A stretch of 61,357 nucleotides of DNA, filler included. It is 4 parts of 4 records of this genome, joined end to end, with 100 filler letters (N's around TTAATTAATTAA, not from the genome) between each part and the next. Parts side by side here need not be neighbours in the genome. Positions count along the whole stretch, not along the records: positions 11,859 to 24,017 come from SRR22947725_1568; 3 more parts are not named here. One strand, given 5' to 3'. Each line of letters begins with the position of its first letter. The first letter of the stretch is position 1. The translations under genes and the position numbers were made by a program. The notes beneath the pieces were generated by a model that was not told where the DNA came from, ran no database searches, and worked only from the letters and a program-made list of their open reading frames with translations. This document shows, piece by piece, positions 2,366 through 57,421 of the stretch.

Positions 2366-2366
2366 T

Positions 2367-2828: not shown

Positions 2829-3816
2829 TTTTTGAGTAGGCTTTTACTATTTTAGAGACAAGTGGGTGTCTAACTACATCTGAATGATCAAAATCAACTA
2901 CTGATATTTCATTTAAATGACCTAATAATTCTTTTGATCTAACTAATCCTGACATATTTTTATTTGGCAAATCAATTTGAGTTGGATCTCCATTAACAAC
3001 TATTTTGGAATTTTCTCCTATTCTAGTTAAAAACATTTTAATTTGAGTGTCTGTTGCATTTTGAGACTCATCTAAAATTGCGAATGAATTTTTAAGAGTT
3101 CTTCCTCTCATAAAAGCAAGTGGAGCTATTTCAATATCTCCAATTTCAATCATTCTCTGAATTTTTTCAAAATCAAAAAGATCATATAGAGAATCGTACA
3201 GAGGCCTTAGATATGGATCAACTTTTTCTTTCATATCTCCAGGTAAAAATCCTAATCTTTCTCCTGCTTCAACAGCTGGTCTAGATAAAATTATTCTTTC
3301 AATTTTTTTTTCTAATAACATCGTAAGACCTACAGCTACTGCCAGAAATGTTTTTCCAGTTCCCGCTGGTCCTGCTGAAATTATTATATCGCTTTGCCTC
3401 AAAGCTCTTACATAATCTTTTTGTTTTTCTGATCTTGGAATAATAGATTTTTTTGGAGTCTTAATAATATCTGTAACATTGTTATTTTTTACTTTTTCGT
3501 TGATCATAAATTTATCTACTGAAGAAAGTATATCCTTGTTCTCAATATTCCCATTATTTATAAATTGGTTGGCTAAAAACTTTATAGCATTTTTAACTAT
3601 TTCATTTTTTTCAGGATTAGACTTAATTAAAATTGAATTACCTCTCGAATACAAACTTGTTTCTGTAATCTTCTCTAATTCTTTTAAGTTTTTATTAAAC
3701 TCACCTACAACACCTATCAAGAGCTCATTGTCGTGAAAAATAACACTTAGAGAGTTGTTGTCTGAATAAACAAACTTTAATGATGTGTCGCTATTCTTTT
3801 TTGTTAAACTACTCAA
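2821..3816 (-). CDS. phoH: PhoH-family ATPase (YbeZ-like)
   Basis: GPAGTGKT, RPAVEAGERLGFLPGD, MRGRT, VVRHPLV. Confidence 0.95.
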   Translation of the reverse strand: MSSLTKKNSDTSLKFVYSDNNSLSVIFHDNELLIGVVGEFNKNLKELEKITETSLYSRGNSILIKSNPEKNEIVKNAIKFLANQFINNGNIENKDILSSVDKFMINEKVKNNNVTDIIKTPKKSIIPRSEKQKDYVRALRQSDIIISAGPAGTGKTFLAVAVGLTMLLEKKIERIILSRPAVEAGERLGFLPGDMKEKVDPYLRPLYDSLYDLFDFEKIQRMIEIGDIEIAPLAFMRGRTLKNSFAILDESQNATDTQIKMFLTRIGENSKIVVNGDPTQIDLPNKNMSGLVRSKELLGHLNEISVVDFDHSDVVRHPLVSKIVKAYSKND

Positions 3817-3819
3817 TTG

Positions 3820-5148
3820 TTATGCTACCTTTTGATTATAATTAAAATCTTTTTTTCCAAATAAAGTACTTCGATTACTTTTGTTTATTTTCACTGGAAC
3901 AATTTTTCCAATATCCTCTTTTTTACCATCAAATATAACTGATGTCATATATTCAGATCGACCAAAAACCCCTGTTTTATCTTCTGTTAAATTTTCAACT
4001 AAAACATTAATTGTTTTATGTTCTAGTGATTTATTCATATGCATTTGATTATCATATAACTGGCTTTGAATTTTTTCCAATCTTTCCATCGAAATTTTTC
4101 GATCTATTAATTTTAAATCTGCCGCAACTGTGCCTGGCCGTGGACTAAAAATAAAAGAATAAGAATTTATGAATTTAATTTTTTTAATAAGCTCAAAAGT
4201 AGCCTTAAAATCCTCATCTTCTTCTCCTGGATAACCTATAATAAAATCACTAGAGAATTGTATGTCAGGGTTAATTTCTTTTAATTGATCAAATATTTTA
4301 TAATAGTCACTAATTGTGTGTTTTCTATTCATAAGATCTAAAACTTTATTAGATCCACTTTGAACAGGTAAATGAACCAAAGGCATCAGTTTTTTTGAAT
4401 TTTTATAAACTTCAATTAAATCATCTGACATATCTTTTGGATGTGATGTGGTATATCTAATTCTTTTAATTTCTGGAAATTTTTCAATTTCAAATATTAA
4501 ATTTGATAATTTATATTTTTCATTATTATAAGCATTTACATTTTGTCCTAGTAAAATTATCTCTTGCGTACCAGTGTCAGCTAAATATTTGACTTCATCT
4601 AAAATTTGTTTAAATGGTCTAGAATATTCTGGGCCTCTTGTGTATGGGACTACACAAAAATGACAAAACTTATCACATCCCTCTTGAATTGTTAAAAAAG
4701 AAGAAATTTTTCCTGAGTCATTTTTAATTTTATTAAAATATTCAAATTTTGAAATAGCATTAAACTCTGTTTCTTCTAGCTTTTTCTTTTTTTCTTTATA
4801 ATTTAGGATTGTATCATTAATTTTATGATACGCCTGTGGTCCTATCACAAGATCTATATAAGGCTCTCTTTTAAGCATTTCCTGGTTTTCTGCTTGAGCA
4901 ACACATCCAGCTACAATTACTAATGGCTTTTTTTTTAATCTAAAAATTTTTTTTACTCTTCCAATTTCATGATAAACTTTTTCTTTTGCTTTATCTCGTA
5001 TATGACACGTGTTTAATAAATAACAATTTGCTTCCTCGTAATTTTCCGTTTTTTCATAACCAATTTTTTTTACAGAATCATATATTCTGTTTGAGTCATA
5101 CTCATTCATTTGACAACCAAATGTTTTGATAAAAATTTTTTGTTTCAT
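3820..5148 (-). CDS. miaB: tRNA methylthiotransferase MiaB
   Basis: TFGCQMNEYDS, LNTCHIR, radical SAM CDKFCHFC, C-terminal TRAM domain. Confidence 0.97.
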   Translation of the reverse strand: MKQKIFIKTFGCQMNEYDSNRIYDSVKKIGYEKTENYEEANCYLLNTCHIRDKAKEKVYHEIGRVKKIFRLKKKPLVIVAGCVAQAENQEMLKREPYIDLVIGPQAYHKINDTILNYKEKKKKLEETEFNAISKFEYFNKIKNDSGKISSFLTIQEGCDKFCHFCVVPYTRGPEYSRPFKQILDEVKYLADTGTQEIILLGQNVNAYNNEKYKLSNLIFEIEKFPEIKRIRYTTSHPKDMSDDLIEVYKNSKKLMPLVHLPVQSGSNKVLDLMNRKHTISDYYKIFDQLKEINPDIQFSSDFIIGYPGEEDEDFKATFELIKKIKFINSYSFIFSPRPGTVAADLKLIDRKISMERLEKIQSQLYDNQMHMNKSLEHKTINVLVENLTEDKTGVFGRSEYMTSVIFDGKKEDIGKIVPVKINKSNRSTLFGKKDFNYNQKVA

Positions 5149-5151
5149 ATA

Positions 5152-5562
5152 TTAGGATTTTTTCTTTATCCCATATAATTCAAGCTTGTGATCTACCAGT
5201 TTGTAGCCATATTTTTCTGCTACTTTTTTTTGAAGTTTTTCAATTTCCTCGTCTACAAATTCAATAATTTCACCTGACTTAACATCTATTAAATGATCAT
5301 GATGTCCTTCGTTCAATTCTTCATATCTTGCTTTCCCACCTTTAAATTCATGCTTAGCAAGTATTCCAGATTCTTCAAATAATTTTACAGTTCTGTAAAC
5401 GGTTGCAATACTTATCTTTGAGTCAATTTTAGAAACTCTGTTATACAATTCATCTACATTAGGATGATCAGATGATTGTGACATAACTTGTGCGATTATC
5501 TTACGTTGATCAGTTAATTTTACACCCTTTAATAAACATTTTTCCTCAATAGTTTCTGACAT
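5152..5562 (-). CDS. fur: Fur-family metalloregulator (alphaproteobacterial Fur/Mur type)
   Basis: ISIATVYRTVKLF and HHDHLID. Sensed metal cannot be determined from sequence. Confidence 0.9.
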   Translation of the reverse strand: MSETIEEKCLLKGVKLTDQRKIIAQVMSQSSDHPNVDELYNRVSKIDSKISIATVYRTVKLFEESGILAKHEFKGGKARYEELNEGHHDHLIDVKSGEIIEFVDEEIEKLQKKVAEKYGYKLVDHKLELYGIKKKS

Positions 5563-5570
5563 AATTAATT

Positions 5571-5957
5571 TTAACTTAAATAAATGGGATTAATCAAATT
5601 TTTTTTAATTTTATATTTTTTGCATAAATTAGGGATATTTTCATTTCTCAAGTCTTTTTCATCGTTAAAATCATCTAAATTATAACAGTAATAATCAATA
5701 TTTTTTGCAACATTAAAGGCTTTAACAACTGACATTGAGTTTCTAATACCAGCAAAGCTTCCTGATCCTTGATTAATATAAATCGCGTTAATATCGGTAA
5801 TTTTAATATTTTTTGATGAGAGAAAATCATTAATAATTATGGTCAATTTTTCATAATTAATTTTAGTATTCTCATGAGTAATATTATAAATATTAGCATT
5901 AGAGATGATCATTAGAAAAATTTTTTCACTAGCAGCGTCTATAACAAGTTTGTTCAT
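5571..5957 (-). CDS. tsaB: Short TsaB/YeaZ-like protein, 128 aa (start reassigned to MNKLVIDAA)
   Basis: N-terminal L-x-I-D motif and GSGSFAGIR (canonical GPGSFTGxR); usual position upstream of fur-miaB. Confidence 0.8.
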   Translation of the reverse strand: MNKLVIDAASEKIFLMIISNANIYNITHENTKINYEKLTIIINDFLSSKNIKITDINAIYINQGSGSFAGIRNSMSVVKAFNVAKNIDYYCYNLDDFNDEKDLRNENIPNLCKKYKIKKNLINPIYLS

Positions 5958-6966
5958 TTTTATTCTGTTTTTGAATTCAAATTCTATTTCAGATGAAAAT
6001 AATATCAAACACTATTCTGGGGACGAAGGTATTTTATCATTAATGTATCATCGTTTTAATGAGAATAAATACCCCTCTACCAACGTTCAAATGGATGTTT
6101 TTAAAGAACATATGAAAATAATAAAAAACTCAAATTATATTTTTTCTAATCCAAAAAATTTTGAGGAAAATTTTAGTTCACCAAAAACAAATAAAGAAAT
6201 TCTTATAACGATTGATGATGCTTTTTTATCTTTCTATCTTGAGGCATGGCCATTTTTAAAACAAAATAAAATTCCTTTTATTTTGTTTGTTTCAACAGAA
6301 CCTGTTGGAAAAAGTGGATATATGACTTGGAAACAAATTAAAGAAGTTGGGGCTGAAGAGTTCGCTGTAATAGGTCACCACTCACATTCCCATGGGTATC
6401 TTATTGACAAAGATGATAATTTTTTTATCTCAGATATAGAAAAAGCAAATGAAATATTTTTAAAAAATTTAGGATACATACCAAATTTATTTTCTTATCC
6501 TTTTGGTGAATATTCTAAATTCATGAGGGATTATATTTCTCAAAATTTTGATTATGCCTTTGGTCAGCATTCTGGTGTAATTGATTTAAATAAAGATAAA
6601 TTTGAATTACCAAGATTTCCAATTAATGAAAATTATGGGGAATTGAAAAGATTTAATTCTATTATAAATTCATTTCCACTAGAATATAAACAACTACTTC
6701 CACTAGAAAAAAAATTATCTATAGAAAATAATCCTCCAAATTTTCAAGTTAAATTTTTTAATGAACAAACTAATTTAAACAATATTAATTGTTATTCGAA
6801 TGAATTAGATATTTGGGAAAGATCCAATACAACTTTAAACGATAATACGTTAACGATAAATTTTAGAGGCCCATTTATTCCAAGAAGAGGTAGAATTAAT
6901 TGCTCATTAAATGATAATGGAAAATGGCGATGGTTTGGTGTTCAGTTTCCTATTAAGAAAAATTAA
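5905..6966 (+). CDS. Exported polysaccharide deacetylase (CE4/NodB family)
   Basis: Hydrophobic N-terminus, LMYHRF, ITIDDA, HSHSH, FSYPFGE, LPRFP. Confidence 0.9.
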   Translation: MIIRKIFSLAASITSLFIFILFLNSNSISDENNIKHYSGDEGILSLMYHRFNENKYPSTNVQMDVFKEHMKIIKNSNYIFSNPKNFEENFSSPKTNKEILITIDDAFLSFYLEAWPFLKQNKIPFILFVSTEPVGKSGYMTWKQIKEVGAEEFAVIGHHSHSHGYLIDKDDNFFISDIEKANEIFLKNLGYIPNLFSYPFGEYSKFMRDYISQNFDYAFGQHSGVIDLNKDKFELPRFPINENYGELKRFNSIINSFPLEYKQLLPLEKKLSIENNPPNFQVKFFNEQTNLNNINCYSNELDIWERSNTTLNDNTLTINFRGPFIPRRGRINCSLNDNGKWRWFGVQFPIKKN

Positions 6967-8036
6967 ATAAGACTTTCTAAATCAGAACTCGAAGGCAATA
7001 ATTTCGCATCATCAAAATCTTGTAATTTATTCTGCATGATTATTTTTTGTAAAACCTCAACATATTGATTGCCTGTTTCAGCATATTTATTTAGGTGTAC
7101 AGAAAGTTTAATACTATCTAATGGTTTTTTAGCGTCTCTTAACTCAGCTCTAGCTTTTCTAAAATGTTTATAAGTAGAATGTGTGTTTAAATTTCTTTGG
7201 TAGGCTCTTACAGATGCTTGCAAGATATTAAATTTCATTACTTTGTGATCTTCATCTTCTTTTGCCTCTTTTGGTTTTAGACCTTCACCAGACCAAGTCC
7301 ATTGTCCAAATAAAGCATTACCCTCTTGAGCAAATCTAGAAGTTCCCCAGCCTGTTTCTTTTGCTGCCTGAGCAATTGCAAGAGACACTGGTATTTCATC
7401 CATTCTTATTTTTAATGTTGATAAATCTCGAGATTTCACACCGTATTGTTTGTATTTTTTTTCGAGCCAACTTAATTCTACAGTTGTGTTATTGCTTTTG
7501 TTAATAATATTAAAAAGTGTTCTTCTATCTTTTTTAATAATGTTGTTTTCTTTTATAATTAAAGGCAAAACAATTTGTATAAAAAATTCTTTCCTTTTTT
7601 TTGTATTCTCAATCAACTTTAATTCGTTGGGCAACAATGTTAGTGCAACTGGTTTAACTAATTTCTTTTGTCTAACGTCATTAAGATTATAATCAGTTTC
7701 TTTAAACAATTTATTTATTGAAGCAGCACTTAAATAAACTGCCTCCGTCTCGCTATTATTTAAGTTATAAATATCAACCAGAACTTCTTCTTCATTTAAA
7801 GTTTCAATTTCTTTTTTATTTTTTTCTTCTTTATTAAGTGTATATGCTAAAATTTTTTTTGAATCATTCATATACTCTTTTGTATAAAAATTTTTATCTG
7901 CAAAATTAATAAATATTGGAGCAATATAGAAAAAAGAAATTGTTAAAAAACTACTTAAAAAAATTTTTAATAAATTATTTCTACTTTTTTGTTCAAATGA
8001 ATCTTGATTATTTTTCATGTTTCTAAATTGCAACAA
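6963..8036 (-). CDS. Membrane-anchored glucosaminidase-domain (Bax/GH73-like) protein; start may be the Met at 8018
   Basis: IPVSLAIAQAAKETGWGTSRFAQEGNALFGQW, NLNTH, N-terminal TM segment. Confidence 0.85.
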   Translation of the reverse strand: MLQFRNMKNNQDSFEQKSRNNLLKIFLSSFLTISFFYIAPIFINFADKNFYTKEYMNDSKKILAYTLNKEEKNKKEIETLNEEEVLVDIYNLNNSETEAVYLSAASINKLFKETDYNLNDVRQKKLVKPVALTLLPNELKLIENTKKRKEFFIQIVLPLIIKENNIIKKDRRTLFNIINKSNNTTVELSWLEKKYKQYGVKSRDLSTLKIRMDEIPVSLAIAQAAKETGWGTSRFAQEGNALFGQWTWSGEGLKPKEAKEDEDHKVMKFNILQASVRAYQRNLNTHSTYKHFRKARAELRDAKKPLDSIKLSVHLNKYAETGNQYVEVLQKIIMQNKLQDFDDAKLLPSSSDLESLI

Positions 8037-8562
8037 CTTCTTTAACTTCAGGTAAATAATGACATAAAAGATTTTGAACTCCTTGCTTTAATGTCATTGT
8101 AGAACTTGGACATCCAGAGCAACTTCCTTGTAATTGAACTTTAACTACTCCATCTTTAAATTCTTTAAATTTAATATCTCCGCCATCTCTAGCTACCGCT
8201 GGTCTTATTTTTTCATCTAAAATTTTAACTATTTTTTGCTCAAGCTCATCTAAGTTTGAGTTTTGCTCTTCTAAACTTTCATCAATGACAAATTCTTTTC
8301 CCTCAGAATAAAAATCATTAATAAATGAAATTACTATATGTTTTACTTCGTCCCATTTTATCATTTCTTTTTTATTGATAGAAATAAAGTCTTCTCCTAA
8401 AAAAATTCCCTCTACTCCATTTATAGATAATAAATTTCTAACAAGTGTATTTTGAGTTTCATCTTTACTAGTAATTTCATATGGTCCACTATTAGACACT
8501 TTTTTTCCAGGCAGAAACTTAAGCGAATTAGGATTTGGTGTAACTTCTGTTTGAACGAACAT
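8023..8562 (-). CDS. NifU/Nfu-type Fe-S cluster carrier
   Basis: TPNPNSLKF N-domain; IRPAVARDGGD and GSCSGCPSS (CxxC). Confidence 0.95.
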   Translation of the reverse strand: MFVQTEVTPNPNSLKFLPGKKVSNSGPYEITSKDETQNTLVRNLLSINGVEGIFLGEDFISINKKEMIKWDEVKHIVISFINDFYSEGKEFVIDESLEEQNSNLDELEQKIVKILDEKIRPAVARDGGDIKFKEFKDGVVKVQLQGSCSGCPSSTMTLKQGVQNLLCHYLPEVKEVVAI

Positions 8563-8614
8563 GAATTATATATAGTGAATAATTTAAAAATTAAAACTTG
8601 TTAATAAATTTTAT

Positions 8615-9616
8615 CTAAAAACCTACTATTTCTTTAATTCTTTTGATCTTTTTTGAGGATATCATATTAGCTTTTTCAACTCCTTCTAGAAGAGTATTAT
8701 CCAAATATGATTTGTCATCTAATAATTTTTTGATCTCTGTTGAAATAGGTTCAATTTTATCAACGAGTGCTTCAGATAATTTTTGTTTAAATTCTGAGAA
8801 ATTTTTACCCGCAAAATTTTCTACACTTTTTTGTAAAGTGGAATTTGTTAAGCTTGAATATATACCTAAAAGATTTTTTGCTTCTAATCTTTCATCAAGC
8901 TCTTTTGGTGTATTAGGCATTGGTAATGGATCTGTTTTTGCTTTTTTTATCTTATTTATAATTAGATCCTTATCATCAGTTAAATTTATTCTACTTAAAT
9001 CTGACAATTCAGATTTACTCATTTTCTTTGAACCATCTTTAAGGCTCATAATTCTTGAAAATTCTTTTTGGATTAAAGGCTCTGGAACCTGTAAAAAATT
9101 TTCAATTTCAAAGTCAGTATTAAACTTTTGAGCAATATCTCTACATAACTCTAAATGTTGTTTTTGATCATCTCCAACAGGAACATGGGTCGCATCATAA
9201 AGAAGAATGTCTGCTGCCATAAGAACTGGGTAAGAATAAAGACCCACACTTGCTTTTTCTTTATCTTTTCCAGCTTTTTCTTTGAATTGTGTCATTCTAT
9301 TTAGCCACCCCATTCTAGCAACACAACTTAATATCCATGCTCCTTCAGCATGAGCCGGCACTTTTGATTGATTAAAAATTATACTTTTTTTAGGATCTAT
9401 CCCACTAGCAATAAATGTGGCTACTGTTTCTTGAATATTGTTCCTTAACTCCTTAGGATCTTGTTTAACAGTGATGGCATGTAAGTCTACAACACAAAAT
9501 ATACACTCATTTTCGGTATCATTATTTAAATCTACAAAATTTTTTATGGCTCCTAAATAATTTCCTAGATGGAGATTGCCTGTGGGCTGAACACCAGAAA
9601 ATATTTTTTTACTCAT
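8615..9616 (-). CDS. trpS: Tryptophanyl-tRNA synthetase
   Basis: [28 protein letters not shown]. Confidence 0.98.
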
Positions 9617-9619
9617 AAA

Positions 9620-11149
9620 TTAATACCTTAATTTAATATCATTCATTTGAAAAGCTTTGATGAAATAACACACAATTAAATAAAATAATAATCCTAATAA
9701 TGCAGATAAAACCAAGTATAAAGATTTGATTGATTGATTGAATGCTAAATCATTTTGAAAGAAGTTTAATAAAAAGTTAAAAAATAAACCCATTAGAATT
9801 GTTGCAAATACTATTTTAATAAATTTGATAAAAAATATTTGATTGAAATAAAATAATTGTCGTTTTTTTAAAAAAATAAATAACAAAATTGAATTAAACC
9901 ATGAAGAAATAGAGGTTGCTATTGGAATTATTATAAAACCAACTTCGCTAAAATAATAAATACTAATAAAAATATTAAGTAATACAGAAATTAAAGAAAT
10001 ATAAAATGGAGTTTTCGTATCATTATTTGCAAAGAAAAAACTTGAAAAAACTTTTATCAAAGCAAAAGCGGGCAGACCTAATGCGAAATAATATAAAGCT
10101 AAACTAGAATTATTCACTGAATTTTCATTAAAAGACCCATATCCAAATAAAGCTGAAATAATTTGTTCTGATCCAATAATTAAAGCAATAGTCGCTGGCA
10201 GACTTAAAAACAAACTTAATTCAAGAGCTTTATTTTGTATGAGCAAAATCTTATTCTTTTTTCTGGATTGGATATGTTTTGAAAGCTGTGGAAGTATAAC
10301 AACTCCAATCGCAATACCAGCTATAGCTAAGTTAATTTGATAAATTCTATCCGCATAATATAAATAAGAAACTGCGCTAGCTTGAAATGATGCAATTATC
10401 GTTCCAATTAAAATATTAATTTGGGTAACTCCAGAGGAAAAAATACTTGGTAAAAGTTTTTTAAAAAAAAACTTAACTTTATCACTTGCTTTTAGTTTAA
10501 AGCTAAATTTGAGCGAGTAATATTTTGATACATATTTGTATAAAAATATAAATTGAAAAAAACCAGCTAGAGAAACACCATAAGATAAATAATAAACCAA
10601 CTGATCACCCAAAGATTTTGAAAAAATTAATACTAAAATTAAAACAATATTCAAAATTATTGGGGCCGCAGCCACAGCAGCAAACTTATTATGTGAATTT
10701 AGAATTGCAGAAAAAAATGATGCTAAACAAATAAAAAATAAGAAAGGAAATGTAATCCTTGTTAAATTTGTTGCTAACTCCATTTTTTCAAAATCACCAA
10801 CAAATCCTGGTGCAATAATTGAAACAAATAGGGGCATAAAAATCTCAATCACAATTGTTAAAAATAATAAACCTAAAAATAATAAGTTAAAAATATCGTT
10901 AGCAAATTTATTTGATTGTTTTTTTCCTTTAATTATTTCTGATGAATAACTTGGAACGAATGCTGCATTAAAAGTTCCTTCGGCAAACAATCTTCTAAAT
11001 GTATTTGGAATTCTAAACGCTACAAAGAAAGCATCAGCCAACATTCCAGTACCAAGGAAAATTGCTATTAAAATATCTCTTAAGTATCCGAGCAATCTGC
11101 TTATTATCGTAAAAAAACCAAATGTGCCTGTTGACTTAACTATATTCAT
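9620..11149 (-). CDS. murJ: Lipid II flippase MurJ
   Basis: SRLLGYLRD, AFRIPNTFRRLFAEG, YYADRIYQ; many TM helices. Confidence 0.97.
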   Translation of the reverse strand: MNIVKSTGTFGFFTIISRLLGYLRDILIAIFLGTGMLADAFFVAFRIPNTFRRLFAEGTFNAAFVPSYSSEIIKGKKQSNKFANDIFNLLFLGLLFLTIVIEIFMPLFVSIIAPGFVGDFEKMELATNLTRITFPFLFFICLASFFSAILNSHNKFAAVAAAPIILNIVLILVLIFSKSLGDQLVYYLSYGVSLAGFFQFIFLYKYVSKYYSLKFSFKLKASDKVKFFFKKLLPSIFSSGVTQINILIGTIIASFQASAVSYLYYADRIYQINLAIAGIAIGVVILPQLSKHIQSRKKNKILLIQNKALELSLFLSLPATIALIIGSEQIISALFGYGSFNENSVNNSSLALYYFALGLPAFALIKVFSSFFFANNDTKTPFYISLISVLLNIFISIYYFSEVGFIIIPIATSISSWFNSILLFIFLKKRQLFYFNQIFFIKFIKIVFATILMGLFFNFLLNFFQNDLAFNQSIKSLYLVLSALLGLLFYLIVCYFIKAFQMNDIKLRY

Positions 11150-11278
11150 AAATCATATTAGTCTTAATTTTACCCTAATTGTACAATTATTATAAGAATA
11201 TATAGATCAAATATTACAAATAATAAAAATTTTTAAAAAGAGTACAAATAAAATTGAGATTAATATAATTAAACAAAA

Positions 11279-11758
11279 ATGAAAAAAACTAACATCGATC
11301 ACTACACTGATAAAGAGGCTCTAGACTTTCATAAAAATAAAAAACCTGGGAAGATAGAGATTAATTCATCAAAAAGTATGACAACTAAGAGAGATCTTGC
11401 TTTAGCATACTCCCCAGGCGTAGCAGCTCCTGTTAGAATGATTAGCGAAAATCCTGAAGCTGCATATGATTATACAAGTAAAGGAAATTTAGTGGCTGTT
11501 ATTAGTAATGGTTCGGCAATTTTAGGAATGGGAAATTTAGGAGCACTTGCATCTAAACCAGTTATGGAAGGTAAAGCGGTACTTTTTAAAAGATTTGCAG
11601 ACATTGACTCAATTGATCTTGAAATTGATTGTTCTGATGCAGATGAAATTGTTAATTCAATAAAAAATTTTGCTCCAAGTTTTGGTGGAATAAACTTAGA
11701 GGACATTGCTGCACCTGATTGTTTTATAATTGAACAAAAATTAAAAGAAATTTTAGAT
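11279..11758 (+). CDS. maeB: NADP-dependent malic enzyme, N-terminal part (cut by contig end)
   Basis: DLALAYSPGVA, ASKPVMEGKAVLFKRFA, GGINLEDI. Confidence 0.92.
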
Positions 11759-11858
11759 NNNNNNNNNNNNNNNNNNNNNNNNNNNNNNNNNNNNNNNNNN
11801 NNTTAATTAATTAANNNNNNNNNNNNNNNNNNNNNNNNNNNNNNNNNNNNNNNNNNNN
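11759..11858. other. Artificial contig spacer (44 N + TTAATTAATTAA + 44 N)
   Basis: Identical 100-nt structure occurs three times; the 12-mer gives stops in all six frames; flanking genes are cut or unrelated. Confidence 0.99.
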
Positions 11859-11901
11859 GTTAATATGTCTAATATAATGCATTTACTTTTCATGAAAAGC
11901 T

Positions 11902-14742
11902 ATGTTTGAATTAAAAGAATCCAAAGAAATTGAATTACTAAATGTAAATGCGCAGATTTATCAGCATTCTAAATTTAATACACAACATATTCATTTAGAT
12001 TCGCCTAATGATGAGAAAGTATTTATGGTTGCATTTCGCACCATCCCAGAAGATTCAACTGGTGTGGCCCATATTTTGGAACATACTTCCTTGTGCGGTT
12101 CTGAAAAATATCCTGTCCGCGATCCTTTCTTTATGATGATCAGAAGATCATTAAATTCATTTATGAATGCCTTTACCTCAAGTGATTGGACGGCTTATCC
12201 ATTTGCAACTCAAAATAATAAAGATTTTCAGAATTTACTAGATGTTTATGTGGATTCAGCTTTTTTTCCTAAATTAGATCCATTGGATTTCTCTCAGGAA
12301 GGCCATAGGTTAGAGATTGACTCCAATCAAAATCTTGAGATAAAGGGTGTGGTTTTCAATGAAATGAAAGGTGCTATGAGCTCGCCAACAGATCAATTAT
12401 GGCACGGGATGTCAAAACACCTTTTTGAAGAAACTACCTATCATCACAATAGTGGTGGAGATCCAGAAAAGATTATTGATTTAACGCATGAGGATTTAGT
12501 TGCTTTTCATCAAAAACACTACCATCCAAGTAATGCAACTTTTTTTACATTTGGTAATGTGGTGATTGATGAAATTCATGATCATTTAGAACGGAATGTA
12601 TTTGATAAATTCACTCCAGCTTCGCAAAAGCTAGTCATTCAACCCGCTAAAATATTTACAGCTCCAGTGAGTGCTCAAGGCCTCTACCAACCCCTGCCCG
12701 GAGATGAAGACAATCATCATGTGGTTATAAGCTGGCTGATTGGAAATAGCCACGACCCCCTAAACTTATTAGAGAAGTATTTTTTGTCAAATATTTTGCT
12801 TGATAATTCATCCTCCCCTTTAAGAAAGGCTTTAGAGCAAAGTGATCTTGGGAAATCCCCTTCCCCATTTCTTGGCATTGAGCCGAGCAATAAAGAAATT
12901 GTCTTTATGGCAGGTTTAGAAGGCGTTGCTGCTGATCAAGCAAAAAATATTGAAGAACTAATTCTTACAACACTACAGGATTTAGTCAAAAATGGTGTTC
13001 CCAAGGAATTAATTTCTTCTGCACTGCATCAGCTTGAAATTGGCCAAAGAGAGATATCTGGAGGCGGAATGCCCTATGGATTGCAATTAATGCTTGGATG
13101 CATGAATGCGTGTATTCATTATGATAATCCTATATCGATGCTAGATGTAGATGAAAACTTTACCAAGCTCAAAGAAAAAATTAGCAAAGAAGGTTACATA
13201 GAAAGTCTAATTGAATCTACTTTGCTTTCAAACTCTCATCGATTAACTTACGAGCTGAAGCCTGATTCTAGCTTTAATAACAATCTTGAAGAGTATTTCT
13301 CATCTAAACTTAAAGAAAAAGAAGATACTCTTTCAGATCTAGACAAGAATAAGATTATTAAGCTTGCTGATGATCTAAAAATAAGACAAGAAGCAGAGGA
13401 TGATGCCAGCCTTCTTCCAAAGGTGACTATAGAAGACATTCCTCTCAAAAGAGAGTATTCCGAGTCAAATGAAGTAGTTGGCAATAGATCAATTTATGAA
13501 GTTGGGACCAATGGGCTGGTTTATTCAGATTTTCTGTTTCCATGCAGCAGCTTAACTAATGAAGAATTATTATTTTCATCTTTATATACATTTATTATTA
13601 CTGAAGTTGGTATCCAAGATAAATCATATGAAGAAATTCAAGCTCACCAATCAAAAATCAGTGGCGGTATAAGCGCAGCAATAAAACTTCAAACCAAAGA
13701 ATCTTCAGAGCCAGGAACATTATTTTTGAGCATTGCCTCAAAATGTCTCGAAGAAAATTTTAATGCCATGGAAGAGTTGATATTCAATACCATAAAATCT
13801 GTGAGATTCGATGAAGAGAAGAGAGTATTAGATTTATTGAATATCTTTGTTGCTAGAAATGATGAATCATTGAATCAAAATGGTCATTACCTGGCAATGA
13901 ATTCAGCGGCTAGCTCATTAAATACTTTAGCAACTACTTCTTTTCATCTATCTGGCTTGCAGATGATTCACCGCACCAAAGAATTAATTTCAAAGATTCA
14001 GCTAGACGGAGATGCCAGCTATATTATTAATATTCTTCAAAATATTCATAGCAAAGTCTCTATTCAACCACATAAAATTTTTACTGCTTGCTCAAAAGAT
14101 GCCTTAAAAAATAAATTAGAAGAGTTTGAAGCATCTCAAGCTAATCAAGAACAGCAGTTGATTGATGCGACTAAGTCTCAAATAGCCTGGATCACAGGCT
14201 CTCAAGTCTGCTACTGCGCTCAAGCTTTTGCGGGGGTGGCAAGAGAGCACCCTGATTCTGCAGCTTTGTCTGTCCTGGCAACTGTTTTAAGAAATGGATT
14301 CCTTCATACTGCAATTAGAGAAAAAGGTGGTGCCTATGGTGCTGGTGCATCAAATGACACTGCTACCAATACATTTAAATTATTTTCATATCGAGATCCT
14401 AAATGCAAAGAAACCTTTCAGGCCTTTGAAGATGCAATTTCATGGGCTAAAACCTCAATTAATGAGCAGCATTTGGAAGAAGCTATTTTGGGTGTTGTCT
14501 CTTCGATAGATAAACCGCTGTCTCCAGTTGGTGAAGCAAAAAATGATTTTAACTTCAATCTAGAGGACATCAACATAGACGATCGCCTAGCATTTAGACA
14601 AAGAATTATTAATTGCTCAATAGAGGATCTAGTCAGGGTAAATGAGAAATATCTTACCAAAGAATCTAAAAAATCAATTTTGGCCGGTGAAAGTTTTAAA
14701 GATCAGGCCGAGGAATTAAAGCTAGAGATATTAGAGGTTTAG
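11902..14742 (+). CDS. M16C (presequence protease/insulinase-type) zinc metallopeptidase
   Basis: Inverted zincin HILEH, GSEKYPVRDPFF, MNAFT, IREKGGAYG, SYRDP. Confidence 0.93.
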   Translation: MFELKESKEIELLNVNAQIYQHSKFNTQHIHLDSPNDEKVFMVAFRTIPEDSTGVAHILEHTSLCGSEKYPVRDPFFMMIRRSLNSFMNAFTSSDWTAYPFATQNNKDFQNLLDVYVDSAFFPKLDPLDFSQEGHRLEIDSNQNLEIKGVVFNEMKGAMSSPTDQLWHGMSKHLFEETTYHHNSGGDPEKIIDLTHEDLVAFHQKHYHPSNATFFTFGNVVIDEIHDHLERNVFDKFTPASQKLVIQPAKIFTAPVSAQGLYQPLPGDEDNHHVVISWLIGNSHDPLNLLEKYFLSNILLDNSSSPLRKALEQSDLGKSPSPFLGIEPSNKEIVFMAGLEGVAADQAKNIEELILTTLQDLVKNGVPKELISSALHQLEIGQREISGGGMPYGLQLMLGCMNACIHYDNPISMLDVDENFTKLKEKISKEGYIESLIESTLLSNSHRLTYELKPDSSFNNNLEEYFSSKLKEKEDTLSDLDKNKIIKLADDLKIRQEAEDDASLLPKVTIEDIPLKREYSESNEVVGNRSIYEVGTNGLVYSDFLFPCSSLTNEELLFSSLYTFIITEVGIQDKSYEEIQAHQSKISGGISAAIKLQTKESSEPGTLFLSIASKCLEENFNAMEELIFNTIKSVRFDEEKRVLDLLNIFVARNDESLNQNGHYLAMNSAASSLNTLATTSFHLSGLQMIHRTKELISKIQLDGDASYIINILQNIHSKVSIQPHKIFTACSKDALKNKLEEFEASQANQEQQLIDATKSQIAWITGSQVCYCAQAFAGVAREHPDSAALSVLATVLRNGFLHTAIREKGGAYGAGASNDTATNTFKLFSYRDPKCKETFQAFEDAISWAKTSINEQHLEEAILGVVSSIDKPLSPVGEAKNDFNFNLEDINIDDRLAFRQRIINCSIEDLVRVNEKYLTKESKKSILAGESFKDQAEELKLEILEV

Positions 14743-14743
14743 C

Positions 14744-18092
<3,349 letters not shown>

Positions 18093-18096
<4 letters not shown>

Positions 18097-21080
18097 GAAG
18101 CGGCTAATTTGAGCGCTTCCTTAACATCAACGGACACAACCCTTGAAACGCCTGCTTCCTGCATAGTGACACCCATTAAGTGATCACTTTTTTCCATCGA
18201 AATCTTGTTATGAGTAATAAAAATAAATTGGACTCTATCCGACATTTCCTCAACCATGGCAACAAATCTAGTAGCATTCAAATCATCTAATGGAGCATCG
18301 ACCTCATCTAGCAAGCAAAAAGGTGCTGGGTTTAATTCAAACAAGGCAAATACTAATGATAATGCTGTCATTGCTTTTTCTCCTCCAGAGAGCTGAGAAA
18401 TTGTTGCATTCTTTTTCCCAGGTGGCTGAGCTGTCAATGTAATTCCGGAATTAAGTGAGTCTCCTTCTAGTAATTCCAAGGCAGCTCTACCACCACCAAA
18501 TAATTTAGGGAAGATCTCTTGAATTTTAGAATTTACCGCATGAAAACTTTCATCAAACTTTAATTTAGATTCTGCGTCTATTTTCTTGATAGCACCCTGC
18601 AGTTTTTCAAGCGCCTCATTTAAATCTTCAAGCTGAGCATCTAGCTCCTCCATGCGCTGAGACTCCTCTGCAATTTCATCAGGCGCAGCTAAATTAATAG
18701 CGCCAAGTGAAATAATTTTAGCTTGAACCCCTGCAAGGGACTGCTCTAGATTGGAAATATCCATATCCTTAAACTCTTCAGGGTTGATATCTCCTATGGC
18801 AAGGCCTGCTCTTGTAAGTGCTTGCGAAGCATTATCAAGGTTAACCTCAAAGGTTCTGAAGTCTAACTTTAAATTATTTGACTGTTCCTCAAGAGCCCTA
18901 AGGTCTAATGAAGCTATAGACTTCTTGTTCTCGTTATCTCGAATAGACTCATCCACCTTAGATTGCTTTTGTCGAATTGTATTTAATTCACCCTCAGCAG
19001 AGGCACTTTTTTGAATTAAGATAGCTAGCTCTTGGTTAGCTTCATTTTTTTTCAGTTCAGTTTGTTGAAGTAACTCTGTGAGGTTATTCTGCCTAGAAAG
19101 ATACTCATCTGGTGCTGCCAAGTTAATGGATGAAAGAGCTGAAATGCTGCTTTGAATTACTGCAAGAGAATTCTCTAGGTTCGCTAGATCAAGTGAAGCA
19201 AAGTCCGATGGATTGATTTCTGAAATTTTAACCTCAGCTTTTTCTAAAATAATGGATGCATTTTCTAGATTAACCTCAAAGGTTCTAAGATCTAATTTTA
19301 AATTATTTTTTTGGGATTCCAGAGATCTCAACTCAATTGATGAGCCTGATTTCAACTCCTCAGATTTTCTGATCAACTCATTAACTTCCGATTTCTTGCT
19401 TTTATAACTATCGAGACTCCCTTCTGATTCCACCTTCTTGGCTGAAAATAATACTAACTCTTTTTCAATCTGAGATTTCTTTTCTGCTGTTTGAAGAAGT
19501 GTTTCCTCGAGTCTATTTTGTCGCTGCAAATATTCATCAGTCATACTTTTCGATTGATCAGAGGCAATCTTTAGGATGCTGGTGAGGGCTGCTTTTAACT
19601 CTAAAGCTTTAGATTTAATAGAATCGCCATTTGAGCCAAGATTACCAAGTGATTCTAAAATATTATCAAGCAAGTTCATTGCTTTTTCTTTAGGGCTTAA
19701 ATTTTCTTGATTTGACTCTTTTTCAAGCGCAGCTTGATAACTTGCTTTTGCTCTCTCTAAATCGCTTAGTGACTGAGCTTCTAATTTCTCTAAATTTTGA
19801 AGATTAGCTTCTTGCCTGGCAATATCAGTGCTGATTGAAGAAAAAGTACTCTGGGCTTCATCAAAACTTGCAGAAAGCGAAGCATGATCATTTTTAATTT
19901 TCTCAATGGTTCCTTGATGTTTTTGAACCTCGTCTGATTTAAGTAGAATACTTGATTCAAGATCATTAATTTGAATTTCTAGTTTCTGCTTTTGCTCATT
20001 AGCTTGTAGGGCCTTGAGGATAGCAATATTCAGTTTAAGTTCATTTTCTTTTGGATTTAATGTGTCGAATGACGACTCTTTCTCAATAGCCCTAGAATAA
20101 CTTTCCTTAGCGGTTGCCAGGTCAGCTTTTGTTTGTGACTCTGTCTTGCTTAAATTTTGAATATTAGCTTCATATCTAGCTATGTCTGCTCCAATCGAAT
20201 AAAAGTTTTTTTGCGCTATCTCAAAGGCCGATAAAACTGATGAGTGCTCGGTTCGAATTTGATCAATCGTTGATTGTTGAGTCTCAACCTCAGCTGACTT
20301 TACAGTAATTTGATTTGCCAAAGAGGATATCTGTGATGACAGCTTATCTTTTTGTGCCTTAGCGCTAAGACTATTTAAGATAGATATATTTAACTTTAAA
20401 TCCTTCTCTTCAATCTGAAATTTCTTATATTTTTCAGCAGCATTGGCCTGATTTTGCAGTCTATTTATCAATCGTTTAATTTCATCTCTGATGTCCAAGA
20501 CTCTTGATAGATTTTCTTTTGTTTTCTTGATTCGCTGTTCTGTTTCTTTTCTTCGTTCCTTGTATTTTGAAATGCCAGCAGCCTCCTCTATAAAGGTTCT
20601 CATCTCCTCAGGTTTGGCGCTAACAATTTTGGATACCATCCCTTGCTCAATAATTGCATAACTCCTTGGCCCGAGGCCTGTTCCTAAAAAAATGTCTTGA
20701 ACATCTTTGCGTCTGCATGAGGTATTGTTAATAGAGTAGTTAGATTGTCCATCTCTGGTCATCAATCTCTTGATGGAAATTTCATTATATTTTGCGTATT
20801 CCCCACCCAATTTTCCCATTGAGTTATCAAATAATAATTCGATGCTGCATTGACCTGAGGGTTTTCTTAAATCTGAACCATTGAAGATGACATCTGACAT
20901 AGAGTCACCTCTTAAATTTTTAGCTGAAAGTTCGCCTAAAACCCATCTCACAGCATCAATGACATTTGATTTGCCGCATCCATTGGGACCAACTACGGCG
21001 ACCATATTTGTGGGGAAAGATATCCTCGTGGGGTCCACGAAACTTTTGAATCCAGCCAGTTTAATGTGTTTGAGCTGCAT
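18093..21080 (-). CDS. smc: Chromosome segregation ATPase SMC, atypical (no recognisable hinge, duplicated arm segments)
   Basis: GFKSF, Walker A GPNGCGKSN, Q-loop IIEQG, signature LSGGEK, Walker B LLDEVDAPLD, ITHN; smc-zipA-ligA order. Confidence 0.95.
18681..19538 (-). repeat. Tandem 429-nt (143-aa) repeat in the SMC C-terminal arm (aa 515-657 and 658-800)
   Basis: DEYLxRQNxL, NNLKLDxRTFEVNLxNAS and INLAAPDE recur 143 aa apart; TTAACCTCAAAGGTTCT at 18841 and 19270; 74/143 identities by hand. Confidence 0.95.
19686..20405 (-). repeat. Tandem 360-nt (120-aa) repeat in the SMC N-terminal arm (aa 226-345 and 346-465)
   Basis: LKLNIxIL, DIARxEANxQNL and EKES...LxPKE recur 120 aa apart without gaps; 61/120 identities by hand. 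Confidence 0.95.
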
Positions 21081-21106
21081 TAAATTTATCCTTTACCCAT
21101 TTTAAA

Positions 21107-21895
21107 CTATTGTTCCTTTTTTAACCATTCGTTAGCATAAATAAATACTTGTTCTTCGTTATTTTCAGAGTACTTCAAATCAAGCGTCTTAAATATATGA
21201 AACGTATTTTTTGAACAAAAAACCACTAGTTCTAGTTGAATAATCTCCTGATATAAAAAAGCTGAGGGAAGATCGAAACCTTTGACCTGTGCATCAGATT
21301 TATCAAGCAAAAAGGTCTGGAAAAAATCTGGTGATAAAAAATCTTTTGCCGCGATATTAACATCTGGACCGTTTGGAATATTAACAACAGCGGTAAGTTT
21401 TGTAGCGTTACAACTAGCTGGCTCAGCAGCAACCAATAAAAGTTTTGCATCTCCAATTAATGGATATTTTGCATCTCTGAGATCTGAAAGTAAGCTGTAT
21501 ATAGAGACTTTAAAGCTTTGATCTTGAAAGCTCGTATTTAAGATTCCTATAATGCTTTCAGAAGAATTAAAAGATTTCATATCCAAGGACTTATAAAAAA
21601 TCTCAACCCCTAGTAAAAAAGAATCTTCTGTTGAATTCATTGCCGAAATAAATTCATTTAGAGCTAAATCTGAAACCTCGAGATCATCTTGAAGCATCTT
21701 ATATATCTGATCAGATTGATGTGCATTTGCCCATTGACCGAACAAAGGTTTTAAAGAAGTGTGATTTAAAGAAAATGCTCCTAACAATAGAATTGTTAAA
21801 AGAAAAATAAGGGGCTTCTGAGGCGAAACTGGGCTCAGCAAATAGCTAATAATAGGCAGTGAGCATAAAAATAAGACCGCAAGAAGTATCAACAT
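21107..21895 (-). CDS. Membrane protein at the ccmI position, possibly a divergent CcmI (start reassigned to ATG 21895)
   Basis: Two N-terminal TM segments; TAATG stop/start overlap with ccmH; no clear TPR motif visible. Confidence 0.5.
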   Translation of the reverse strand: MLILLAVLFLCSLPIISYLLSPVSPQKPLIFLLTILLLGAFSLNHTSLKPLFGQWANAHQSDQIYKMLQDDLEVSDLALNEFISAMNSTEDSFLLGVEIFYKSLDMKSFNSSESIIGILNTSFQDQSFKVSIYSLLSDLRDAKYPLIGDAKLLLVAAEPASCNATKLTAVVNIPNGPDVNIAAKDFLSPDFFQTFLLDKSDAQVKGFDLPSAFLYQEIIQLELVVFCSKNTFHIFKTLDLKYSENNEEQVFIYANEWLKKEQ

Positions 21896-22275
21896 TAAAG
21901 CCTTCTGTTTGATAGAAAAACTAGAATTAAAATTCCTAAAAAAATAAATGGTCCAAGCCATAATAAATAATTGGCACCTTCAAATGCTGGCTTATAGTCA
22001 GAAGAGGCTCCAAACCTATCGGTGACATAAGCTTTAATTTCTTTATCTGTAGATCCGGCAAGAATTAATTCATATACCTTTTGCTTTAAATCTCTAGATA
22101 CTGGCACATCAGAGCTAGCAATGCTCCCACTGGTGCATTTAGGGCATCTTATTTCAGATATCAAAGAATAAAACCTTTTCTCTTCTGTAGAGTTATCAAA
22201 TTCATAGATCGCATCGGCTGTAAGACAGTTAGCGAAAAAAATACAGCCAAAAAGAGCTATGGTAAGTAATTTCAT
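21895..22275 (-). CDS. ccmH: Cytochrome c biogenesis protein CcmH
   Basis: Signal peptide, IRCPKC, C-terminal LLWLGP TM segment. Confidence 0.93.
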   Translation of the reverse strand: MKLLTIALFGCIFFANCLTADAIYEFDNSTEEKRFYSLISEIRCPKCTSGSIASSDVPVSRDLKQKVYELILAGSTDKEIKAYVTDRFGASSDYKPAFEGANYLLWLGPFIFLGILILVFLSNRRL

Positions 22276-22796
22276 TGATTACCCATAGTGGCTGCGTTAA
22301 TCAAGGGAACAAGAGTGGATTGCCATTTTTCTTGATTAAGCTCTCCTTGAATATGGCCAATAATTTGCTGGTTGAATATTAAAAAAGTTTCCGGAGCTCC
22401 GGTGACTCCTAGGTCAAATGCAAGATCGCCTCTTGGATCATAAATTGAAAATATATATGGGTCTCCCCTCTTCCCAAGCCACTGCTTAGCTTTCACCTGA
22501 GAATCTTTATAATTTAAGCCTATGAGTGTAATTTCATTTTTCGATAGCTGGGTTAAAAAGGGATGTTCGACCAGACATGTAATGCACCAACTAGCCCAAA
22601 CATTCAGTAAACTAATTCCATTAAATGCAGCCAAATCAATCTCGCGATCTTCTAGGTCCTGAAGGTCAAATTGAGGAAATTCTTTTGGCTCGAAATATAC
22701 CAAAGCATCATCCTGATCAGTAATTAAAATCGCACCGTAAGTGATCAAAACTATTAATGGCAATAAAATAATTAAGGACCTATAGATTGCGTTCAT
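22272..22796 (-). CDS. ccmG: Thiol:disulfide interchange protein CcmG/DsbE
   Basis: LNVWASWCITC, NYKD, LGVTGAPETF. Confidence 0.94.
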   Translation of the reverse strand: MNAIYRSLIILLPLIVLITYGAILITDQDDALVYFEPKEFPQFDLQDLEDREIDLAAFNGISLLNVWASWCITCLVEHPFLTQLSKNEITLIGLNYKDSQVKAKQWLGKRGDPYIFSIYDPRGDLAFDLGVTGAPETFLIFNQQIIGHIQGELNQEKWQSTLVPLINAATMGNQ

Positions 22797-24017
22797 GAAA
22801 TTTTCTTTTTAAATATTGTCATTAGAATTCCAATTACCATTAAAGCAGAAGAGAGCCAAATCCACTTTATAAAATAATTAATCTGCAAGCTAAAGGTCCA
22901 GCTGCCATCGTCTAACTGATCACCTATTGTCAGGTAAGTGTCTTTTAAAATTGAAGCGTGGATAGCTGTCTCTGATGTAATCTGCCCTCTTGCAAAATAC
23001 TTTCTTTTTTCAGGATTGAGAAAAATAGGCTGTCCATCATGAACAATGAATATTTCTGCTGAAACAACATCATGATTTGAAGCCTTAATGTTTTGTAGAT
23101 CTAAAAATTTAAATTCTGAGATTGAATTATTAATAAACTGTTGCTCACCAAGAAACAAATTTATATTTTTTTGATAACTTAAAATGCTGTTCATTGACAC
23201 AGCAAAGAATAGAAGACCCAGGCCTAGATGAGCAATAAAGCTGCCTTTGTTAATATATGTCTTATTTTTTAAGGATATGGCACCTTTTAAAAGGTAGCTA
23301 ATTATTATCAATAAGCCAGAGTAAATACCTATGAAGGCAAGTAATGAGAAAATTTGTACGAAATACCAAATGAAATATAAAATTAGGCTTGATATAACAA
23401 AGGTAGGTGTTACTGCGACCAATAATGTTCGGGCTTGCATGCCCCTCTGCCATAATGCTTCTAATGAAATCATGATAAAAATAGATGTCAGAAGAATTAA
23501 TGGCGCAAAAATAGTATTGTAATAAGGAGGGCCTATGCTCACCTTATCGCCATTAATAAATTCAAGAATTAAAGGGTATGTAACACCTAAAAAGATCGAA
23601 AAAATAGCGGTTAACATCAAGATATTATTCATAGATAAAAACGACTCTTTAGAGCCAGTCACTATTAGTTTTGATGACTGCATATTTGGAAGCCTATATG
23701 CAAATATTCCGAGGGAGATAAGAGTTATAAAGCCAGAAAAACCTAATAGATATAAACCTCGCTGCGGATCATTTGCAAATGAGTGGACGCTATCAATAAT
23801 TCCTGAGCGCACTATAAACGCGCCGAATAGACTTAAGGCAAATATTAAAATACCTAAAAATAAAGTCCATGTTTTTAAAATATTAGATTTTGAGGAAGCA
23901 AAGAGTGAATGCATAAACGCTGTTGCTGCAAGCCATGGCATCAGAGCAACATTCTCGACTGGATCCCAAAACCAATATCCTCCCCAGCCAAGCTCATAAT
24001 AAGCCCACCAACTTCCA
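22793..24017 (-). CDS. ccmF: Heme lyase CcmF, 5' end cut by contig edge
   Basis: Frame stays open to the spacer: GSWWAYYELGWGGYWFWDPVENVALMPWL; also SVHSFA. Confidence 0.96.
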
Positions 24018-24117
24018 NNNNNNNNNNNNNNNNNNNNNNNNNNNNNNNNNNNNNNNNNNNNTTAATTAATTAANNNNNNNNNNNNNNNNNNNNNNNNNNN
24101 NNNNNNNNNNNNNNNNN
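24018..24117. other. Artificial contig spacer
   Basis: 44 N + TTAATTAATTAA + 44 N. Confidence 0.99.
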
Positions 24118-24152
24118 CCGTATTCTTTAATTATATTTTCTTTAGTATTCAT
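24118..24152 (-). CDS. rpsO: Probable 5' fragment of ribosomal protein S15
   Basis: MNTKENIIKEY(G) matches the S15 N-terminal pattern; truB-ribF-rpsO order. Only about 11 codons are visible. Confidence 0.7.
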
Positions 24153-50714: not shown

Positions 50715-50814
50715 NNNNNNNNNNNNNNNNNNNNNNNNNNNNNNNNNNNNNNNNNNNNTTAATTAATTAANNNNNNNNNNNNNNNNNNNNNNNNNNNNNN
50801 NNNNNNNNNNNNNN
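50715..50814. other. Artificial contig spacer
   Basis: 44 N + TTAATTAATTAA + 44 N. Confidence 0.99.
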
Positions 50815-57405: not shown

Positions 57406-57421
57406 CAGGCTCTAATTTATC

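Follow-up and report, generated by a model that had tools for sequence, protein, structure and literature searches.

How much of the working of a structural maintenance of chromosomes (SMC) motor depends on its hinge, and how much on a conserved arm length, is an open question, and the smc gene described here bears on both parts of it. The gene lies on the minus strand of a 61,357-nucleotide stretch of DNA (referred to throughout, at its full length, as 'the window'), where a single open reading frame (ORF) at positions 18093-21080, consisting of 995 codons and a stop, encodes a protein of 995 amino acids (aa). Each of the two arms of that protein carries an internal tandem repeat, and the stretch between the arms is very short. 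An original prediction, made from the letters of the window, had proposed that the two repeats form a matched pair, gained by a shorter and hinge-less ancestor. What did such a duplication add to, how did it arise, and what kind of protein did it leave behind? The protein is very probably a 'mini-Smc' in which the head-proximal modules of both arms have been duplicated at the tip, with an inner hairpin stacked on the outer pair and with Smc function kept.

Two repeats in the arms of one protein

When the protein is scanned against itself along gapless diagonals, two outliers appear, at offsets of 143 and 120 residues. The first matches aa 497-675 with aa 640-818 (83 of 179 positions identical, BLOSUM62 score 392) and the second aa 224-358 with aa 344-478 (66 of 135 identical, score 314); the diagonal that ranks third scores 61. 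Both repeats lie far above what shuffled versions of the coiled-coil part produce, whether its composition was kept (60 shuffles, diagonal score 50.9 +/- 6.7, maximum 79) or its heptad pattern as well (60 shuffles, 50.8 +/- 5.4, maximum 62). The scan thus confirms the gapless tandem repeats of 120 aa in the N-terminal arm ('N-arm') and 143 aa in the C-terminal arm ('C-arm') that had been predicted, and the span that had been assigned to them, 18681-20405, corresponds to aa 226-800, within two residues of the measured unit limits. When the units are compared in their exact register, B1 (aa 516-658) and B2 (aa 659-801) share 74 of 143 residues, precisely the count given by the original prediction, and A1 (aa 224-343) and A2 (aa 344-463) share 60 of 120, in place of the 61 that it had counted. 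The motif INLAAPDE, as it had also noted, is present twice, at aa 652-659 and at aa 795-802.

At the level of DNA the copies are 57% and 51% identical, and 36-37% identical at third codon positions; the duplications are therefore old. Between the two periodic regions there remains a non-repeated stretch of only 18 aa (479-496). The paired arm repeats of this Smc are thus both real and ancient.

An Smc protein without a hinge

The protein exceeds the cut-off of the NCBIfam model TIGR02168 (SMC_prok_B) by a wide margin (851.5 bits against 567.35). Its head carries a Walker A motif (GPNGCGKS, aa 31-38), a signature motif (LSGGEK, aa 897-902) and a Walker B motif (aa 921-926, with the residues DE at 925-926), the columns of which are invariant across 33 relatives. 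Solved Smc head structures match it at an E-value of 1e-106, and a Foldseek search of the predicted structure against the PDB returned SMC-family chains only, with template modelling (TM) scores as low as rod-shaped molecules lead one to expect and with no information on the register of the arms. Together with the gene order smc-zipA-ligA, these matches identify the protein as the Smc (condensin) orthologue of a SAR86 gammaproteobacterium.

What the protein does not possess is a hinge. A Pfam scan gave no match to the SMC hinge domain (PF06470) even at E<=1, while the same kind of scan detected that domain in the canonical relatives P0126, P0152 and P0167; moreover, only 52 aa (464-515) separate the two arms. 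Cysteines are found at aa 35, 78, 122 and 922 alone, and there is no CxxC zinc hook, as no cysteine lies between aa 123 and 921. Rad50/SbcC and RecN resemble the protein in its predicted general plan, an ATP-binding cassette (ABC) head from which an antiparallel coiled coil extends with no globular hinge at its end, but the SAR86 protein lacks the CxxC hook and its scores against those families fall far below their cut-offs (50.9 against 1087 for the Rad50 model; 34.4 bits against 407.85 for the RecN model TIGR00634), and both identities were rejected.

Aligned with canonical Smc P0126, the repeated units map to head-proximal parts of the arms (aa 224-354 and 864-985), from which it follows that the lineage lost its distal arms and hinge and later doubled what remained. 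Four other Smc relatives, P0125 (810 aa), P0233 (827 aa), P0171 (906 aa) and P0243 (736 aa), have neither a Pfam hinge nor an internal repeat; the loss of the hinge therefore extends beyond the SAR86 family, and arm length also varies by other routes.

Long and short forms among close relatives

All 120 near-identical homologues among the matches listed are 995 aa long, at 98-100% identity and on separate contigs, so that the long gene is real. In a search of representative proteins, P0122 (995 aa, 59% identical) carries the same two repeats, and P0123 (732 aa) carries none, its alignment to the window protein being interrupted by exactly two gaps, one of 120 aa and one of 143 aa. The same two sizes recur among 23 SAR86 loci taken from species genomes, of which 5 code for 995 aa and 15 for 732 aa, the remaining three (L035, L036 and L048) being cut or broken.

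A survey of the family was centred on the closest species genome, a SAR86 metagenome-assembled genome (G042; smc locus L031) whose Smc protein is 98% identical to that of the window. (Another genome, G001, was set aside as a reference relative, as its match is confined to the foreign middle part of the window and its Smc belongs to a different lineage, genus g1, with frames of 881-912 codons.) Matches at E<=1e-30 were found in 121 of 139 genomes of the G042 family, and frame sizes refer to those among the matches listed, 51 further matches lying outside that list. In 41 of the 121 genomes the gene is of the long type: 38 have an uninterrupted open frame of 996-1010 codons, and in the other three (G058, G076 and G097) the gene is cut or interrupted. 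The remaining 80 show the split match of a short form, with complete frames of 729-749 codons, and the short form accounts for about two thirds of the species of the family. In G097 (C2:292665-297366) the long-type smc contains an in-frame TGA and the ligA match five in-frame stops, which may point to a decaying locus or to poor assembly.

Twenty further genes that were fetched individually fall into the same two classes: seven are long (995-996 aa, with offsets of 120 and 143) and thirteen are short (727-733 aa, without a repeat). Offsets and unit borders are identical in 13 of 13 long forms. In each of the 22 short forms examined a single A unit and a single B unit are missing, always from the same alignment columns, and the protein aligns to the outer units A1 and B2, to which its single units are closer than to the inner ones (for example 76% against 51%, and 65% against 53%). 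The coupling of the two arms is strict; no one-arm form (852 or 875 aa) was found among the matches listed of the family genomes.

The expectation that single-unit relatives of about 730 aa should exist is therefore borne out by proteins of 727-733 aa that differ by exactly 120 + 143 aa, as is the expectation that both repeats would change together. Of the three length classes that had been suggested, those near 730 and 995 aa were found; one near 1260 aa was seen neither in the representative search nor among the matches listed of the family genomes. The natural, modular series of arm lengths that had been proposed is thus supported as a series of two steps, in which sister species carry one unit fewer in each arm.

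Predicted anatomy of the arms

Models of the long form (predicted local distance difference test (pLDDT) 72.7, predicted TM score (pTM) 0.33) and of a short form, L038 (pLDDT 72.6, pTM 0.39), were made with AlphaFold2 (AF2), and their secondary structure and helix lengths were compared. The N-terminal side of the long form is predicted to consist of a helix (aa 171-331), a loop (332-341), a second helix (342-456), a loop (457-462) and a short helix (463-479) that leads to the tip (480-481); the C-terminal side returns as a helix (482-614), an irregular piece (615-656), a helix (657-757), a second irregular piece (758-798) and a final helix (799-861). Helix lengths on the two sides are matched, both in the inner part (115 + 17 = 132 residues on the N-side, 133 on the C-side) and in the outer part (161 against 101 + 63 = 164). 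In the short form the model places helices at aa 171-336 and 343-360, then the tip, then a helix at 366-494, an irregular piece at 495-535 and a helix at 536-598, which amounts to 166 + 18 helical residues on one side and 129 + 63 on the other.

Each unit is predicted to add some 101-115 helical residues to its strand. The A module of 120 aa comprises about 110 helical residues and a loop, and the B module of 143 aa about 101 helical residues and a 42-aa irregular, 'joint-like' piece that ends in INLAAPDE; it is this piece that explains the extra 23 aa of the C-arm unit. An alpha helix rises by about 0.148 nm per residue, from which an arm length of approximately 27-28 nm can be computed for the short form, and one of 43-44 nm for the long form.

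Conservation and selection

Between the window and L031 the ratio of nonsynonymous to synonymous substitution rates (dN/dS) is 0-0.09 in every region of the gene, A2 and B1 included, and purifying selection acts on all regions, the inner units among them. This is the one pair in which dS is not saturated, so that deeper dN/dS values are unreliable. The inner units accumulate amino acid changes faster, with dN 2-4 times that of the outer units, and their mean pairwise identity among long forms is 43% (A2) and 46% (B1), against 57% for both A1 and B2. Two short motifs at their borders stand apart: A2 begins with an invariant ELKLNI, and an INLAAPDE-like motif, LG.[IVL]N..[AS]P[DE], is kept at the end of B1, each in 13 of 13 long forms.

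Trees of heads and of units

A tree was built from the head and its adjoining helices (aa 1-223 and 802-995; 42 rows, leaving out the near-duplicates L041, L042, L043, L046, L049 and L051 and three broken loci). On it, the long forms fall into three clades: c, nested among the short forms of d; f, sister to the short e (100/100); and b+i, sister to the short h. The starred branches of this tree force at least three changes of length state. Holding all long forms together, as a group that was named after the tree had been seen, costs 238 log-likelihood units (p 4e-52 in the approximately unbiased (AU) test). Identities of the neighbouring LigA to the window copy agree with this grouping: they are 64-94% in c (94% in G042), 63-67% in d and 48-56% elsewhere, whether the Smc is long or short.

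The trees of the units present a different picture. A starred branch of the A-unit tree (98/91) has all 13 A2 units on the same side, and a starred branch of the B-unit tree (99/96) does so for all 13 B1 units, so that each inner unit arose once. An independent duplication in b+i is rejected, as the constraint that its A1 and A2 stay together lowers the log-likelihood by 42 units (AU p 0.0019). Since the inner units have a single origin but the long forms occupy three clades of the head tree, paired losses or lateral replacement must have followed. In 13 of 13 long forms the A1/A2 and B1/B2 identities track one another, from 50/52% down to 27/28%, a match that fits the equal age predicted for the two duplications. 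The short ancestor that had been postulated is likely as well: the short state is probably ancestral, because the nearest outgroup (P0243, introduced above) aligns as a single-unit form. An attempt to date the inner units relative to the root of the family, by ratios of rates, pointed different ways for A and B and was not used; placing the inner clade at that root is not rejected for either unit (AU p 0.25 and 0.196 for A and B, respectively).

A proposed duplicated hairpin at the tip of a mini-Smc

According to the proposed explanation, a lineage would first have shed its hinge along with the distal half of each arm, so that a mini-Smc of approximately 730 aa remained, folded back on itself at a short helical tip. 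One module of the N-arm (120 aa) and one of the C-arm (143 aa) would then each have been duplicated in tandem beside that tip; the gain may have come as a single insertion of a copied hairpin, as had been predicted, or as a pair of separate tandem duplications. The arm of an SMC protein is an antiparallel, intramolecular coiled coil, and for this reason the tip-proximal A2 and B1 would be expected to pair with one another in an inner hairpin that sits on top of the original A1-B2 pair. Each arm would thereby come to have about 295 helical residues where there had been about 185-190, with the head-proximal register left undisturbed and a second joint-like discontinuity added.

The product is most likely still a DNA-loop-extruding Smc-ScpAB motor. 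Searches of related genomes found an adjacent scpA-scpB pair in each of four relatives (G042, G043, G045 and G001). Two hinge-less chains would have to be held together without that domain. (A complex prediction for two copies of aa 400-560, comprising the tip and its flanking helices, scored 0.02 and was made without controls; it has no bearing on dimerisation by the tip.)

Several points weigh against this explanation. The long form is not monophyletic on the head trees, and a single gain is by itself insufficient to account for it; nor do we know of any DNA mechanism that changes both arms together. The A1:B2 and A2:B1 pairing is inferred from SMC topology and from the matched helix lengths rather than from observed contacts, and confidence in the structural models is moderate. 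The presence of ScpAB is established in relatives, the nearest being G042, which is 95% identical in DNA over 11.9 kb, and in one short-form genome, G044, searches found neither ScpA nor ScpB, its completeness not being given. Finally, the inner units evolve about twice as fast as the outer ones, so that their role is perhaps a looser one than mere spacing.

Alternative histories and readings

How the two length classes came to be scattered across the family can be explained in more than one way. The history that fares best, although its chances fall somewhat short of even, places the paired duplication once, on the stem of the SAR86 family, and derives the short forms by repeated, precise loss from both arms. 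Such a history accounts for long forms on both sides of the family root of the head tree and for inner units that form single clades, and the root placements of those clades that the AU test does not reject are those it calls for. At the apex, the long f has its best match in the short sister e (69% and 62%, compared with 52-60% to c), as vertical descent would have it. Runs of exact DNA identity that lie in register (17 nt in the C-arm and 11 nt in the N-arm) could seed precise deletions by slippage, and in locus L127 (genome G162) the motif RT[FY]E[VI]NL reads THEINL in both B1 and B2, a rare histidine that hints at gene conversion; between them, slippage and exchange between copies become conceivable. 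The price of this history is about five or more independent double deletions, each of them exact in both arms, between copies that are no more than 51-57% identical in DNA, in a family that shows no one-arm intermediate among the matches listed of the 121 genomes and whose nearest outgroup is short.

A second possibility, which can be entertained tentatively, is that the duplication took place later, within c/d, and that a long centre of the gene, or a long-lived polymorphic allele, reached f and b+i by recombination. Fewer events would be needed (one gain and two transfers), and in both of the free unit trees the inner clade attaches beside the outer units of c/d and not on the basal branch, although support for that position is weak (94/83 and 84/68) and the AU test does not reject the alternative. 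In b, f and i the inner units show motifs of the c/d type (LKLNI; LRT..NAS..KAE), unlike the outer units of the same lineages, and the head tree does not keep clades c and d apart, with LigA identities that overlap (63-70%, apart from the 94% of G042), so that both forms occur in close species. Against such transfer, the heads, outer units and neighbouring LigA of f, b and i are all native to their own lineages, and the f apex resembles that of e; the breakpoints would have had to fall exactly at the unit borders, where the flanks are only about 45-50% identical in protein.

A further reading concerns function rather than descent, and is improbable. The inner hairpin might be less an extension of length than a new functional platform, in which the second joint binds a partner or DNA, or a substitute for the hinge that holds two Smc chains together. 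Its borders are indeed the most conserved parts of the inner hairpin, the rest of A2 and B1 drifting; but about two thirds of the species of the family manage without it, and the conserved borders may serve the folding of the junctions and nothing else.

That three lineages duplicated the same units independently would explain the three separate clades of long forms on the head tree, but is very unlikely, given that A2 and B1 each form one clade with starred support, that the AU test speaks against a separate duplication in b+i, and that offsets and borders are the same in every long form; convergence is disfavoured on these grounds, even if some long-branch attraction among the fast inner units is conceivable. 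That the repeats are an assembly error or a chance similarity of coiled coils can be dismissed almost entirely: the window is itself a mosaic of at least three sources, but its junctions (at about 11859 and at 24016-24118) lie outside smc and the 11.9 kb around the gene is colinear with G042, the 995-aa gene recurs on separate contigs, an uninterrupted long gene is present in 38 species genomes, copies this divergent cannot be collapsed or expanded by an assembler, and the shuffled controls score far lower.

Comparison with known systems

The bacterial Smc of Smc-ScpAB (for example that of Bacillus subtilis) shares with the SAR86 protein its head motifs, its match to TIGR02168, its head-proximal arm segments with their joint motif, the smc-zipA-ligA synteny, and the presence of ScpA and ScpB in the nearest genomes. 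The SAR86 protein differs in having neither a hinge domain nor a distal arm: its arm consists of two copies of the head-proximal module, with the joint-like motif present twice.

Hinge-less SMC proteins from the ocean have already been published. A paper of 2025 (Environ Microbiome 2025;20:65; PMC12153180) describes an abundant, monophyletic oceanic cluster that is annotated as Actinomycetes, and from its description the SAR86 proteins are alike in having an SMC-type head and a predicted coiled coil, without a hinge and without a CxxC zinc hook. SAR86 is not named in the main text of that paper, whereas the present genes are found in SAR86 genomes, and its section on the cluster mentions neither arm duplication nor length dimorphism, both of which the SAR86 Smc displays. 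The combination of paired duplication with length dimorphism was described in no paper found in the literature on hingeless SMC, SAR86 Smc or SMC internal duplication.

The engineering of B. subtilis Smc provides a second point of comparison (Mol Cell 2017;65:861; PMC5344682). According to that study, Smc works at discrete arm lengths only; natural arms vary in steps of about 100 aa, with modes of 238, 341 and 515; in experiments the functional period is 91 aa; and a different dimerisation element can stand in for the hinge, as in an Smc(zinc hook) chimera. The helical step of the SAR86 series is of the same order as these, and the long form, with some 295 helical residues per arm, can be set beside the engineered Mini-Smc and extended-arm constructs. 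Those are laboratory versions of B. subtilis Smc in which a hinge or a hook is retained, whereas the SAR86 series is natural, hinge-less, and produced by duplication of the protein's own modules. The arm of B. subtilis Smc measures about 47-49 nm (PMC5344682, PMC5526789).

Evolution has thus supplied, in close relatives, a matched pair of Smc proteins with the same heads, tip and partners, one or two arm modules, and no hinge. The series makes testable the joint change of both arms, the adaptive value of arm length, and the dimerisation and loading of an Smc without a hinge. SAR86 are among the most abundant bacteria of the ocean, and the hinge-less Smc, with one or two arm modules, is therefore a mainstream natural solution and not a rarity. 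A broader generalisation, which is possible but doubtful, is that the arm is built from an autonomous hairpin module (about 110 coiled-coil residues per strand, together with its own joint) that has been added or removed pairwise at least three times in one family. If so, the length of the Smc arm would be quantised by a physical module and toggled between about 27 nm and 44 nm. At either length an Smc without a hinge would be functional, and neither a hinge nor one fixed arm length would be needed for the motor.

Genomic neighbourhood

Coordinates of the features of smc and of its downstream neighbours on the window
Feature	Position	Strand	Basis
smc, hinge-less Smc orthologue	18093..21080	-	ORF; TIGR02168; no PF06470 match
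ATPase head, N-terminal half (aa 1-170; Walker A aa 31-38)	20571..21080	-	Sequence; invariant columns; solved heads
N-arm helix next to the head, outside the repeat (aa 171-223)	20412..20570	-	AF2 helix 171-331; diagonal scan
N-arm unit A1, outer (aa 224-343); orthologue of the lone A unit in short forms	20052..20411	-	Scan; alignments; unit tree
N-arm unit A2, inner (aa 344-463); without counterpart in short forms; faster evolving	19692..20051	-	Scan; alignments; unit tree
Apex (aa 464-515): loop, 17-aa helix, tip (unique 479-496), start of C-arm helix; kept in long and short forms	19536..19691	-	Scan; alignment; AF2
C-arm unit B1, inner (aa 516-658); first INLAAPDE at its end; without counterpart in short forms	19107..19535	-	Scan; alignments; unit tree
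C-arm unit B2, outer (aa 659-801); second INLAAPDE at its end; orthologous to the single B of short forms	18678..19106	-	Scan; alignments; unit tree
C-arm helix next to the head and C-terminal head half (aa 802-995); LSGGEK 897-902, Walker B 921-926	18096..18677	-	Sequence; invariant columns; AF2; solved heads
zipA, 203 aa, directly downstream of smc	17485..18096	-	ZipA_C, E 2.3e-13
ligA, 717 aa	15330..17483	-	Order smc-zipA-ligA kept across the family

The order smc-zipA-ligA is that of gammaproteobacteria, and a comparison of coordinates places the end of smc 0.6-0.7 kb from ligA in G042, G060, G098 and G100. Upstream of smc lie ccmH, ccmG and part of ccmF. Directly upstream is also an ORF of 284 aa (21107-21961, minus strand) with a hydrophobic N-terminus and no Pfam match. 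The ORF at 22793-23941 (minus strand) matches CcmF_C only; its N-terminal part is missing exactly where the match to G042 stops and the segment ends (about 24016), so that the gene has been cut by the junction.

Colinearity with G042 extends over window positions 12096-24016, at 95% DNA identity. The window as a whole is composed of four segments (1-11858, 11859-24016, 24118-50714 and 50715-61357), a mosaic with the look of a chimeric assembly and not of a biological arrangement. Positions 24118-50714 are 99-100% identical to contig C15 of G001, which belongs to another family and whose own Smc frame has 897 codons; beyond this segment and 11859-24016, the flanks of the window have no close match to G042 or G001. 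GC content is 26-28% over positions 1-12000 and 35-38% over positions 12001-24000.

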